Numbered from the whole stretch's first letter, positions 19,074 through 36,984 are shown. The stretch is DNA of 56,555 nucleotides, filler included, from Catajapyx aquilonaris (GCA_000934665.2; 3 parts of 3 records of this genome joined end to end with filler, not necessarily neighbours in it), one strand, 5' to 3'. The notes: a model not told the origin generated them from the letters alone. Numbers and translations: made by a program.

Positions 19074-21188
19074 GAAGAAGAATTGGCCAGGCACAAGGGG
19101 GCGTATGAACGCGAAAGAAAAGAACTAGAACAAAAGATGACAGAAGTAAGAGGTAATCGAGATTTCTATTTCGATGAATGGAAAAAAGCCCGTGAAACTT
19201 ACCAAGCAGTTACAAACAATCACCTAAAGAGCGACTTGGAAAAAAACTCGATTATAAAAGATCTCAGTGTCAAAACCAATTACTTTCAAGAGGAATGCGC
19301 AAAATTGCGCCATTCATTGACGGACACGGAAGAAAAACTGCGCAGTGAGACGGACAACGCAATTTATTTTCATGGCAGGTACCAGAAGTCGCAGATTTCC
19401 CTCAGGGAAAAGGTAAGGTCCGGGTAATATGAATTGCCATTGTCAAAGTTTGAGAACACACACTGACACAACTGTTCCAGGAAGAAGAAGTGAAGCGTTT
19501 GACTACTCAGATTGAGTCTTGCAACAATAGTCTTCAACAAGAAAGAAACAACAATGACGAACTGCAGAAAATATATGAAGCTAAATTGTCAAAACTGCTT
19601 CAAGAGGTGGAAATAAGAGATTCTAAAATATCCGAACTGCTAGTGGCAAAGGAACAACAGGAAAACTATTTGAAATATTTGGAAAACTTGAATTCAAGCT
19701 TGCAAACCACAGTGAATGATTATGAAATGAGAATAAAGGAGTTGCTCACCACTATTGACCAAAAGAATGCTGAAATGGAAAGCATACAGCAGACATCTGA
19801 AGAGAAGATCAGTCTTCTGTCCAATATTACTAAGGAACAGAAGCAGACCATTGAAAATCTGAAGAGTGAAAATCAGAACCTGTCTATTAAAAAGAGTGCG
19901 CTTACAAGTATGTTGGAAAAGAAAGAAGGTGAACTCTCAGAGTGTAAGGACCATCTGAAGAGGAAAGACACTGAGATATCTGGTCTGAACAGGAGGCTGG
20001 CTGCAAAGGAGTCTGATCTGTCTGAAGTTAGACGAGAATTGTCTGTGGAGAAATCTAGGTGCTCTCACTGGAAGGAAATGGCATCTCAGAAGGACTCGGA
20101 AAACGAGCAGCTTGTTATGCAAATAAGCAAAGCAGAGACAGATCTAATGATTTTGGAGCGAGACTCTAAAGAATTGAAGAGTCGACTGGAAGAAGCTGGA
20201 AAAGACGCGGAGAAAAAGGTAAATAATATATTTTGAAAAAATTATAGCTAAGTTTGATTGATTAAAAAAATTGTATATAGAATGAGAAGTTGAAGGAGGC
20301 CAAAATGAAGATAACAGCATGTGAATCCAAAATTCATGATATGACCTTGAAGATGACAGGAAGCTGCGCAGAGAGTCACCTCATGAAGAGTGAAATTGAA
20401 AACTTAACCCAAAACCTAAAGGATGCACGCAACACGATCAAGAAAAAGGTTAGTGGGCAACACCATAAAATATTGGTTGGTGCAAGGGTCTTATTTTGTA
20501 CTAATACAGGAAGAAGAAGTTAAATGTGTGCAAAATCAGTTGAAGGAGAACGAAAAGAAACTTCGAGAGGAGGAACTGAGAAGAGCAAGAAATGACTACG
20601 ATAAGCCAGCCAGTGCTGCATCTGGACACCAAGAAATGGTAAATAGCATAGTAATGTATAGAAAAAAAATTACATTTTAATTTTTTTTAAACTAGATCTT
20701 GTTTTGTCATGTTGGGACGCTCAAAATATAGCTAACTTAATATCTTTAACTCTGTAGTCTCAGAAGGTCAATGTGGACAAAGGTATAGTCAGCAGCTTGT
20801 CATTGAACGTCGAGGCTTACCGACAAGGCTGTACCGAGACAAACACTTATTGCATCAAGCTTCCAATCAAGTACCAGGTGCCTACAGTCGACATGGTAGC
20901 CAGTAAGCTGCTTCCTTTGCTGAAATGGAAGGACCATGCTGGAAAGGTGATTTCTACATGGAAAGAACTGCAGCAAGGAGGATACTCACTGTATTGGGAA
21001 GGTTAGCATTTTCTCATGTTCTAACTAAATTGTTCGTACAATATTTTTCATACACAATTCCATCAATGCTTTCAGAGAACGTTCCTGATCCTGAAATGAT
21101 AGCACTGGACGATGGGGTGGTCAGGACAGCATTCAACGACTGGCTGCAAGAAGACGTCGTTACTTTGAAGCTGATGTACGTGACGTGA
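19074..21188 (+). CDS. Cluster gene A: long coiled-coil protein with C-terminal PB1/ubiquitin-fold-like domain (5' end missing, >=576 aa)
   Basis: GT-AG exons 19074-19412, 19481-20218, 20281-20448, 20510-20638, 20758-21001, 21076-21188(TGA) join in frame. The body is E/K/L/Q-rich with heptad character. C-terminus: SLSLNVEAYRQG...LQQGGYSLYWE|ENVPDPEMIALDDGVVRTAFNDWLQEDVVTLKLMYVT. AATAAA at about 21388. The domain call is by eye only. Confidence 0.85.
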
Positions 21189-22407
21189 ATTGTGTATTTT
21201 TTTTTACAGTGCGCCACAAAATAATAACAGGTTGAAGACTTGCAGTATTATAGCATTGAACAGTCATCAGTATGTTTGGAAGAATCGGGAGTAAGTGTGA
21301 ACAACTAATCTTCAACACCTGGATTCCGTATCATATGAAGTATTTTACAAGAAGTATGGGCAGACTGTATTGCAACATATTCAGAGCAATAAAAAAAACA
21401 TAATGTCAATGTAATTTGCTTTTTATGTCTCGACTGATATGACCTGGGCACATGAGCAACATGCTGTACAGAAAAAGATAACAATTATCACGGTTCAATT
21501 TTCCTTGTGTGATACTTGGAAGTTCGCGATACAGATTTTATCTGGCCGTACATATATGTGTGCCTGTGGCTACCAATTCAACAATGAGACGTAAAAAACT
21601 CTCAACAATATAAGTCAGTATCTTCACCTGACACTTGTTCATGTCATATTTGAATAATATATTAAACGCAATGAGTCCGCCCACGGCATGTTGCAGTGAC
21701 CTCGAGCGTAGACTTTCCGCAAGTCAACATAGTCAACAGAGGAGTATAGGCCTATATATTGCCGTGTAATTTTTAAAAGTGCAAATATTGACATAACCAT
21801 TGTTGGCGTGATCACAAGTAGTTACAATAATAGCAAAGAAAAACAACGGAAACAATAGTTGCTGGAGTCATTTGAGACTTCAGAAAATCTGAGCAAAATT
21901 TTTAATTCCCATGCTACAAAGCTCTATAGTGACACTTTTCAAGTGGGAAAATGTTTCCAGAATAATTTGGGGACTACTGAAACCATGTCACAATATAATG
22001 TATTGTCCAACATCTGCAGGGTGATTCATAATTCTAAGAATTCGTGCCTCTCACTGTCAGTGCCATTGTCCTCAGAGACTGCAATAATATTATCTGGATA
22101 GAATTTTCTCCCATTCATGTAGGCGTGTGAAAGAAGTATGCAGAGAGAAATATTGTGCCGCTTGACACGTGTGGACGTGTAATGAGACCCATGGTACCAG
22201 GCGGTGTTGTGTGATCCGGTTTCGAAGGGCAGAAAAGGAGAGAAGGAAATGTTCATATGTCTTTGCCTCGAGTTCCAATGACTGCATTGCTCCAGCATCC
22301 ATTCCATTGTGTCTTCGAGTCGAAGAAGGTTGGTCTGCCTGTTTGCTTGTCGATGCTGCTAATTCGAGTCAACAACAACACCACCACCAACAACAACACC
22401 AACAACC

Positions 22408-34418: not shown

Positions 34419-36984
34419 ATGGAAGATGATGCAAACGCAGGGCCACAGCAGTATGAAACATTGCTGCTTGAAAAAGAAGAAGAGATCATATGCGAGGTAT
34501 TATTATTATTATTATTATTATTATTATTATTATTATTATTATTATTATTATTATTATTATTATTATTGGCTTAATGTGCAGATTGCAGCTTTGAAGGAGA
34601 TACATGAGGCAGAGACATGCAGACTGCGGAAAAAGGTGGAAGATTTGGAGACACTGTATTCTGGTCTGCAATCCAAAAATATGGAAATTAACAAAATGTT
34701 CAATGAGTTGAAGAACTATACGCTGCAGGTGATAGAAGAGGCTATTGATGTATGTTACTTTATTGGGCAAAATATCATGTTATACAATTAACCTGTCTTT
34801 ACACGTATTATTGCTTGGCCAGAAATCTACTCAAACAGGTGAGAAGAAGGAGGAGTCGGAATGTTTTTGGCTTAAAAAACTAAGAGCTTCCATTCGAGAG
34901 AAGATCAGTTCGCTTGAATCAGGAAACTTCCAACTGCAGAATGACATTTTGATGCACGAATTTAAGGTAGCACGTTTGCATATAGACATAAAAGACAAGG
35001 ACAATAAAATAAAGGAACTGTTGCAGGAAATTGATCAGAAGGTAACTTATCTACACACCATACGTGCTTGTCAATATCTTTTGCATTTTAAAATGAATGC
35101 TCAAAATTTCTCGGCAGGACATGAAGCTAGAAAGCAGGAAGCACAAAAAGAAAGAATTTCAAACTCAGATGATACGGATGCAGAACGAATTACAGAAAAA
35201 GGAATTTGAAGGAATGATTATGGAATGCGAAATGAGGGAAAACACACAGATACTTGACGAGATGAAAAACAAGGCTGAATCCAGGGTAGGTGGTCGCTTT
35301 CAAGTACTGTATTGCTTCCATATTTAAAAGTAACATTTAAAAAAATTTGTATGTTGCAGAAGAACGAATTGGAAGCAGCACAGGCCAAACTCAAACGCAT
35401 TGAGGAGGAGTTGCACCAAAAAGAAATTGAGAAAGTCAAACAAGAAGCAGAAGGAAAATTGCTCTCTGTGATGCAAGATGCTAAACTCAAACGTTATAGT
35501 GAAGCTCTAGAAAGGGTAAGCCATTTGGAGAGAGGAGAGAACATTGTTTTTAAAATTTTACACAGTAAGAAAACATTTTCTCCCAAAATGCCACTCTAAT
35601 ATAAGCAATTTTGAGTCGAATACCACATACAAAATTCTGGAATTAACATGACAAATTTTTTTTCCACGCCCAGCTCTACTCTATGAGAATAACGATTTTG
35701 GAGCGTGAAATAAAACAGAAAGACAAGATAATGGAGTACGTGCTTAAGGAAACCTACAAGAAGGTAACTATTTTCTATATCGTACAGGCTTGGCGATATC
35801 TTTGAGTTTAAGAATGTCATTTTTTATGCGGAATGTAAAAAAAGAAGGAGGCACTGATGCCCAGCGAACGAAAGGATTACGCAGGAATGATTACTAAAGA
35901 TGACATGAAAATGAACGCTGCATCCAGAGTAGGTGCCATTCTTGCAGTTTTCCTAGCTTTAATACATCAAAAGTTTTTAATGACTTCCTTACAGGATAAT
36001 GAATTGAAAGCAATAGGGGCCGAACGCATCCGCATCGATTGGGTTAAATTCAACCAAGAGGTAAGCTACTTCGACAACATTGTACAACAAATTCAAAATA
36101 GTTAAAAAAAATTCTCTCATAAACTCATACACATGAGGACAGTTCCAGTTGAATATTGAGGTTATATAAGTTATGAATATGTATGAGTCTTACCTTGAAG
36201 AAGATAACCGAGAGTAGCCTATTAATTATGTCGCTCTCCCGATAACTACACACAGGCTGAAAGTCGCTTCAAGAAGCTGATGGAGATGAGCTTTTCCCAT
36301 CGTATATCTGTAACGCAGATGAATCCAGCATGGAAGCCGAAACATCATCTGCCAAGACGCATCGGAATTATCTTCTGTCCAGAAGGAAGTCCGGAATGCT
36401 ACCAGATATTCAAGGGACCCACGGAAAATCACGAGGATTTGGAAGAATGTCTTAAGGATATTCTCTCACGGCACGACATACTGAATTGGAAGTTCCACAT
36501 TTCGACCACGGAGAAACACCATTTCCGTGTCATGCACGACGCCGGTTATTCTGTTCTTGCACGGAGTAAGCACTACATCCATATTAAGTTATCCAAATAT
36601 ATTATTTCAGAGCAACCGTTTCAGTTATAGTTTTCTGACTAACCTGCTCTTTTAAGCTATTTAGAAATATATCAAACGTGTTTATATTTGGCTTGTTAAA
36701 ATCAGTCGATTTAACTAGAGCGGATGAGTCTTATCTTGCTGAATAAAATATATTAGTCTTTGACCTAAGAGGACACCTGATATTAATTATGACTGGTTGA
36801 AGTTACTTTTCTGGACTGTACTTTTCCAGATTTCGACACTGATCGCTGGGAGAAAGTAGAAAGTTTTGAGAACATTGTCGATCTGTGGGAGGACAACGGC
36901 GAGGATGAGAAGTTCCTCCCTCTCGTAATTGTTCACCAGGATGAACAAGAGTTTCGGTTGACGGAAGTCGACTTTGAACTTTAG
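34419..36984 (+). CDS. Cluster gene D: coiled-coil plus C-terminal PB1-like domain protein (about 417-469 aa)
   Basis: Exons 34419-34496, 34582-34749, 34823-35041, 35118-35285, 35360-35515, optional 35674-35763 and 35995-36060, then 36256-36565, 36830-36984(TAG). Clear paralog of B and C (KAESR, NELEAA, AESRFKKLMEMSFSH, GPTENHEDLE, HDAGYSVLA). Start codon uncertain. AATAAA at 37067. Confidence 0.82.
34498..34567. repeat. (TAT)n microsatellite in gene D intron
   Basis: Visible run starting right at the donor GT. Confidence 0.95.

Follow-up and report, generated by a model that had tools for sequence, protein, structure and literature searches.

A tandem cluster of coiled-coil genes in Catajapyx aquilonaris whose C-terminal domains are predicted to adopt an atypical PB1-like fold

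The window analysed here, a 56,555-nt stretch of DNA from Catajapyx aquilonaris (GCA_000934665.2), contains four multi-exon, intron-bearing genes on the plus strand, designated A, B, C and D. They encode heptad-rich proteins, and the C-terminal domain of the type present in B, C and D is predicted to form a PB1-like beta-grasp fold. We read the cluster as a lineage-restricted, tandemly duplicated group of intracellular coiled-coil adaptors with an atypical PB1-like docking head, and give this reading about an even chance of being correct. The deduced protein plan comprises a short acidic N-terminus, a heptad-rich helix of ~230 residues (at least 450 in A), the motif AESR..KLM..SFSH, a variable Pro/Lys-rich linker and a C-terminal domain of ~125 residues; the motif part of this plan is derived from B-D. 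The proteins were taken as cytoplasmic or nuclear because inspection by eye revealed no N-terminal hydrophobic stretch at the start of C. The C-terminal parts map to the following positions:

28836..29379, plus strand: predicted PB1-like C-terminal domain of gene B, split by the phase-1 intron 29050-29221; 65% identity to C before the intron
32805..33236, plus strand: predicted PB1-like C-terminal domain of gene C, the modelled one, split by the 60-nt phase-1 intron 33019-33078
36349..36981, plus strand: predicted PB1-like C-terminal domain of gene D, split by the phase-1 intron 36566-36829
20794..21185, plus strand: C-terminal globular part of gene A, ~108 amino acids, split by the phase-1 intron 21002-21075

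For structure prediction, the tail of gene C was read through its 60-nt frame-keeping intron, with X at the two stops, and aligned with separate exon translations of B and D. The resulting AlphaFold2 model reached a predicted local distance difference test score (pLDDT) of 63.8 and a predicted template modelling score (pTM) of 0.63, and all five models were alike (pLDDT 58-64). It consists of strands at residues 13-18 and 28-31, helices at 37-50 and 62-72, strands at 75-80 and 107-109, a helix at 113-122, a strand at 129-136 and a helix at 137-152. In terms of order this corresponds to S1-S2-helix-(extra helix)-S3-S4-short helix-S5-(C-terminal helix), in which S3 is the strand carrying the sequence Gly-Tyr-Ser (GYS). 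The model thus displays the beta-grasp order including the helix between S4 and S5, a helix that marks the PB1/RA variant of the fold according to PMC1949818. Confidence was low at the N-terminus, in one loop and in the loop derived from the intron, but not in the strands. In a Foldseek search with this model, seven of the ten top rows were PB1 entries (best E 0.018). A second comparison of Foldseek's 998 chains placed PB1 entries in 15 of the 20 top rows. Two aligners that work differently both give PB1 domains as the nearest solved structures. An earlier note on this DNA had proposed a beta-grasp, PB1-like C-terminus for all four proteins; for the B-D type this is borne out by the predicted model with PB1 as nearest fold, while for A it is not established.

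Several observations weigh against this reading. The confidence of the C model is middling, its alignment effectively holds three sequences, and the query contains a 20-residue intron-derived loop with two X. At ~125 amino acids the domain exceeds the 80-100 amino acids of a canonical PB1. The pre-intron part of A modelled alone gave a pLDDT of 55; the order of its elements, which agrees with that of C up to the GYS strand, lends the reading weak support. If the C model were wrong, the tail would be an alpha/beta domain of another or a new fold and the PB1 matches would reflect a common strand-helix arrangement. Against this explanation, which we consider unlikely, speak the likeness of the five models, the pTM value, the agreement of the two aligners on the family and the location of the low-confidence stretches outside the strands.

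Further points of the same kind concern the sequence hallmarks. PB1 domains are described in PMC7051960 as ubiquitin-like beta-grasp domains of five strands and two helices; the hallmarks named there are a beta-1 lysine, an OPCA core of the form D-x-D/E-x-D/E and a tyrosine in beta-3 that is fairly conserved. The predicted beta-1 strand of C (I-I-G-A-I-F) and the aligned residues of B (I-G-V-T-F-Y) and D (I-G-I-I-F-C) contain neither Lys nor Arg, and beta-2, where polymer formers carry arginines, has no conserved Arg, which leaves the domain outside types B and AB. Past the beta-3 strand, the sequence is N-D-D-N-N in B, N-F-K-T-D in C and N-F-D-T-D in D; the OPCA core is therefore not conserved, with D-x-D in D only, and the domain does not qualify as type A. 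Acidic residues are enriched farther on (E-S-x-D/E-D/N and E-x-x-x-E-D), and the domains carry net charges of -4 (A), -6 (B), -11 (C) and -16 (D). B-D may therefore possess an acidic face without the OPCA motif. The earlier statement that the basic lysine is absent and an acidic patch kept holds for beta-1 and for the net acidic character of the domains, and fails for the OPCA core. The beta-3 tyrosine is retained: all four proteins have GYS, and in the C model it starts the predicted beta-3 strand. Altogether, the predicted model supports a domain that is PB1-like by fold, and PB1 membership by the definitions of the family is not supported.

Sequence searches likewise count against a PB1 assignment. 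Pfam was queried with exon-wise translations of A-D and with the C read-through, which includes the intron-derived loop and is not the properly spliced domain. PB1 (PF00564), the family named in the earlier note, gave no match at E up to 10, neither for the exon pieces of A-D nor for the C read-through. No Pfam family could be assigned to the exon-wise translations. The family DUF7906 (PF25483) was matched by the C read-through alone, with an E value of 0.0029; its 17.9 bits fall short of the cut-off of 27. In searches with phmmer, the pre-intron part of A had 0 matches at E up to 10 among all PDB chains, though the fold search found PB1 entries there. The alignment of gene A with the p62 PB1 domain, given in the earlier note, is thus without statistical support. 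PDB sequence searches produced chance-level rows only. Moreover, the tail of A is hardly comparable to those of B-D: blastp E values ranged from 2 to 47, the hhalign probability was below 1%, and exon-anchored global alignments gave z values between -1.5 and 3.1, with one of six comparisons reaching 1/500. Beyond GYS, no residue-level similarity of the A tail to B-D was detectable in these comparisons.

A beta-grasp tail need not descend from PB1. It could represent a separate, fast-evolving lineage (RA/RBD-like, UBX-like, CIDE-N-like or new) and serve as a generic protein-binding head. With the missing motifs and the blank PF00564 result on one side, and the kept beta-3 tyrosine and the PB1 entries nearest in structure on the other, we regard such an origin as possible but rather doubtful. 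The PB1-like reading was set against larger sequence collections as well, which did not return the proteins of the source organism itself, so that the blanks do not fix the range of the family among animals. Word-indexed searches for longer proteins yielded none at E up to 0.01 with the penultimate exon of B and none at E up to 0.1 with the pre-intron exon of A. A HMMER profile built from the B, C and D penultimate exons was run against 1.84 billion representatives and retrieved no true relative. Of 355 pattern matches in JGI metagenome contigs none was confirmed. In the ESM Atlas, the B exon gave no usable match and the A exon bacterial clusters only, with scores of 0.76-0.78, below lead level. 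A full-length match of A-D to a characterised family, which the earlier note had named as a refuting outcome, was not found in the Pfam, word-indexed, profile and PDB searches.

Two candidates from these searches were discarded. Membership in DUF7906 was rejected because the score lies below the gathering score and arose only in a query containing the intron-derived loop; separate exon pieces of B, C and D gave no DUF7906 match at E up to 10, and a literature search on the name turned up no mention. The lone match of the HMMER profile, a 2587-aa repeat protein hit in six short stretches, was judged spurious from its sequence. As a coverage control we searched with the WD40 open reading frame at 47697-48545, which was swamped by bacterial multi-repeat proteins and returned at least one eukaryotic entry.

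The genes themselves were modelled from stop-to-stop open frames and GT/AG site scoring, and compared with contigs of one public run, X1, whose type is not recorded and which contains 38% of the sampled words. We read X1 as cDNA of the same organism because its contigs skip GT..AG introns and show zero differing letters in the listed pieces. The X1 contigs contain at least 15 GT..AG joints, and all 15 among the joints listed fit the models (A 2, B 3, C 7, D 3); 21401-24540, among other parts, lies outside their cover. Splice models and X1 joints confirmed the positions and the common strand of the four genes proposed in the earlier note, and the spliced contigs provide transcript support for the models. 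One joint shifted the start of the fifth exon of gene A to 20758, and another exposed the first exon of gene C, which ends at 31293, and thus placed its ATG at 31271. The models are:

19074..21188, plus strand: gene A, 5'-truncated, at least 576 amino acids; exons 19074-19412, 19481-20218, 20281-20448, 20510-20638, 20758-21001, 21076-21188 (stop included)
24465-24487, plus strand: candidate first coding exon of gene B, with ATG and GTGAGT donor; 88% identical over 25 nt to the first exon of gene C
27214..29382, plus strand: gene B, at least 436 amino acids; exons ~27214-27309, 27435-27608, 27831-28043, 28106-28273, 28359-28514, 28707-29049, 29222-29382 (stop included)
31271..33239, plus strand: gene C, complete, 450 amino acids; exons 31271-31293, 31352-31448, 31510-31683, 31914-32126, 32198-32365, 32441-32596, 32658-33018, 33079-33239 (stop included)
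34419..36984, plus strand: gene D, 417 amino acids from the first in-frame ATG; exons 34419-34496, 34582-34749, 34823-35041, 35118-35285, 35360-35515, 36256-36565, 36830-36984 (stop included)

A single X1 contig of 1790 nt joins across all seven introns of gene C. The cDNA joints of the other genes are 20638/20758 and 21001/21076 in A, 27608/27831, 28514/28707 and 29049/29222 in B, and 34749/34823, 35041/35118 and 35285/35360 in D, for which a contig piece covering 36254-36565 was found in addition. In all four genes the last intron is in phase 1, the only one in that phase, and lies four residues past GYS, a position that the earlier note had reported. It is confirmed by cDNA in A (21001/21076), B (29049/29222) and C (33018/33079); in D the contig piece stops at the predicted exon end, 36565. 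Position 19074, given before as the start of the cluster, is an exon start with an acceptor site, ~60 nt past a (TAT)n run and 185 nt from the edge of the piece. It is not the start of the gene: the 5' part of A is missing since its first visible exon begins just inside a piece that starts at 18889. The first exon of gene B is probably located at 24465-24487, judging by its likeness to that of C. Its junction is not among the listed X1 joints, and in-frame acceptors are present at 27018, 27033 and 27072.

About 2 kb of repeats separate this candidate exon from exon 2. Between the two, the ~1-kb stretch 26114-27131 matches its own reverse complement at 73.5% identity, with units of ~150-250 bp that are up to 89% alike, and many variant X1 contigs pile up at 25169-26424. 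The region looks like a repeated, transcribed element. In gene D, the 740-nt intron 5 contains degenerate copies of the gene's own exon 3 end (35707-35803, 68% over 97 nt) and exon 4 end (35899-35935, 81% over 37 nt). They represent an internal duplication that has decayed and is removed by splicing.

Comparison of B-D pairs revealed ratios of nonsynonymous to synonymous substitution (dN/dS) of 0.43-0.55 in the coil and 0.38-0.61 in the C-terminal domain, below 1 in every comparison, which indicates relaxed but real purifying selection. The genes might instead be decaying duplicates or transcribed pseudogenes without function. The youth of the family, the relaxed constraint with dN/dS of up to 0.61, the degenerate exon copies in intron 5 of D and the 5' end of B broken by repeats would agree with decay. 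In contrast, all four reading frames are open across six to eight exons, splice sites are intact and used, dN/dS stays below 1 throughout, and the tail has conserved hydrophobic core positions, which makes loss of function very improbable in our view.

Kinship within the family is clear for three of its members. The proteins are 57% (B/C), 49% (B/D) and 49% (C/D) identical over more than 400 amino acids, and B, C and D have every intron position and phase in common; on this comparison they are clear paralogs. Gene A shows coiled-coil-level likeness to B-D in blastp, with an ambiguous register. A 168-nt exon with phase 0 on both sides is common to A, B, C and D. In a gapless high-scoring segment pair of 138 amino acids (E 2.9e-4), the introns of A after residues 359 and 415 coincide with those of B after residues 161 and 217. 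At the last intron, a register match of at least three identical residues was reached in 32 of 20000 shuffles of the last 125 residues of A. Furthermore, A, B and D carry a triplet microsatellite in the intron preceding the first coiled-coil exon:

18947-19013, plus strand: (TAT)22 microsatellite in the intron upstream of the first visible exon of gene A
27328-27429: (TAC)34 microsatellite in the corresponding intron of gene B
34498-34567: (TAT)23 microsatellite in the corresponding intron of gene D

Gene C retains just a short TAT remnant in the corresponding 61-nt intron. Exon structure alone leads us to regard A as an old and longer paralog of B-D. The common origin of all four genes suggested in the earlier note accordingly stands on exon structure, and the tail of A contributes no residue-level similarity to it beyond GYS.

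The bodies of A-D are rich in E, K, L and Q. Heptads were assessed by a home-made a/d count, namely the share of residues lying in 28-residue windows in which six or more of the eight a/d positions are hydrophobic. This share was 0.72 in A (maximum of shuffled sequences 0.47), 0.46 in B (0.43), 0.42 in C (0.40) and 0.61 in D (0.54). The signal lies above all 100 shuffles in each gene, in keeping with the heptad periodicity over long proline-free stretches that defines the coiled-coil class, and substantiates the heptad-rich bodies described earlier. Pfam coiled-coil families gave weak, sub-threshold matches only. In B-D, the coiled coil is followed by the motif A-E-S-R-x-x-K-L-M-x-x-S-F-S-H, with 11 invariant columns, at the start of the penultimate exon:

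28707-28751, plus strand: motif in gene B
32658-32699, plus strand: motif in gene C
36256-36300, plus strand: motif in gene D

The motif sits between the coiled coil and the linker, which varies by ~20 residues. In these three genes it is one of the best-conserved stretches, and it may constitute a second functional site; no copy was seen in A.

Compared with the PB1 domains (PF00564) of p62/SQSTM1, NBR1, aPKC, Par6, MEKK2/3 and MEK5, the cluster domain lacks a match to the family model, the beta-1 lysine, the double arginine and a conserved OPCA core. It differs from a canonical PB1 further in an extra helix before strand 3 and another at the C-terminus, in its length (~125 versus 80-100 amino acids) and in its position at the C-terminus, behind a long coiled coil. 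The earlier note considered this architecture unfamiliar in animals. Among the nine animal PB1 families listed in PMC7051960, PB1 is N-terminal in aPKC, MEKK2/3, Par6, TFG and p62, and for none does this source describe a long coiled coil that precedes a C-terminal PB1 (the architecture of MEK5 and NBR1 is not given). Literature searches on coiled coils combined with a C-terminal PB1 or PB1-like domain found no description among the matches listed. A C-terminal PB1 as such is known in animals, according to the same source, from NCF2 and NCF4, where it is combined with SH3, PX or TPR modules. The unfamiliarity therefore holds for the combination and not for the C-terminal position. Unlike the cluster proteins, NCF4/p40phox and NCF2/p67phox carry PX, SH3 or TPR modules and canonical type A or B motifs, and have no long coiled coil.

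Two further systems share single features with the cluster. The N-terminal domain of Par-3/Bazooka has a PB1-like fold outside the sequence family, with the canonical motifs absent (PMC9290619, citing Feng et al. 2007), and the protein also has a region that PMC9290619 calls coiled-coil. It thus sets a precedent for a PB1-like fold of this sort. In contrast to the cluster domain, that of Par-3 sits at the N-terminus and forms head-to-tail polymers; the structural matches listed for the C model did not include it. TFG, a scaffold-forming protein, likewise combines a PB1 domain with a coiled coil (PMC7051960, PMC6978347). In TFG, however, the order is reversed, with PB1 at the N-terminus, and the domain is of the polymer-forming type with an arginine motif (PMC6978347). 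Sequence similarity between TFG and the cluster proteins was not found.

If the PB1-like reading holds, the heptad-rich helix would most likely pair into a dimeric stalk, which would display two acidic, type-A-like docking heads. These heads could dock onto a basic surface of a partner, which may be a PB1 domain with the lysine or another protein, and would not polymerise among themselves. Self-polymerisation of PB1 requires a basic motif with a double arginine finger, as reported in PMC6978347, and canonical polymerisation of the heads would be ruled out because they lack the beta-1 lysine and the arginine finger. PB1 binding that does not extend a polymer can shorten a filament: the PB1 domain of NBR1 binds one end of the p62 filament and shortens filaments (PMC6978347). 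By analogy, capping by the cluster heads, as suggested in the earlier note, is conceivable but speculative, and so is the part in autophagy or immune signalling that the note suggested. In a bolder version, the cluster would represent a new class among animal PB1 proteins, with a dimeric stalk whose two atypical, acidic, non-polymerising PB1 heads dock on the basic ends of PB1 polymers or signalling pairs (p62, TFG, aPKC-Par6, MEKK-MEK5). As a rapidly duplicating regulator particular to its lineage, it would cap, cross-link or relocate them in autophagy, polarity or stress signalling. We consider this version quite unlikely.

PB1 domains build signalling pairs and filaments, among them p62 bodies, the aPKC-Par6 polarity complex and the MEKK-MEK5 pathway. 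If the predicted fold is true, the cluster would present a known fold in an arrangement new for animals and with its motifs gone, in a young, expressed family that could naturally modulate PB1 assemblies. The fold would then have outlasted the sequence hallmarks of its family, and neither Pfam nor large sequence searches would pick the genes up. Should the fold prediction prove wrong, the cluster would be no more than an ordinary lineage-specific orphan family.

The window is composed of three separate pieces strung together and split by two identical linkers. The cluster occupies the middle piece, 18889-37700 (18.8 kb). Because the linkers separate the pieces, genes on the outer pieces need not be genomic neighbours of the cluster.

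18789-18888: linker (44 N, TTAATTAATTAA, 44 N) at the left edge of the 18.8-kb cluster piece
37701-37800: identical second copy of the linker (44 N, TTAATTAATTAA, 44 N)

The outer pieces encode an ionotropic glutamate receptor, Elongin A, a TAF5-like WD40 protein and TRAPPC9:

44-355 and 10659-11105, minus strand: ionotropic glutamate receptor exons (Lig_chan-Glu_bd, E 4.9e-23; ANF_receptor, E 1.4e-14), first piece
42600-43520, plus strand: Elongin A exon (E 1.8e-17), third piece
47697-49810, minus strand: TAF5-like gene with TFIID_NTD2 and WD40 repeats, third piece
54556-54894, plus strand: TRAPPC9 exon (E 5.1e-12), third piece

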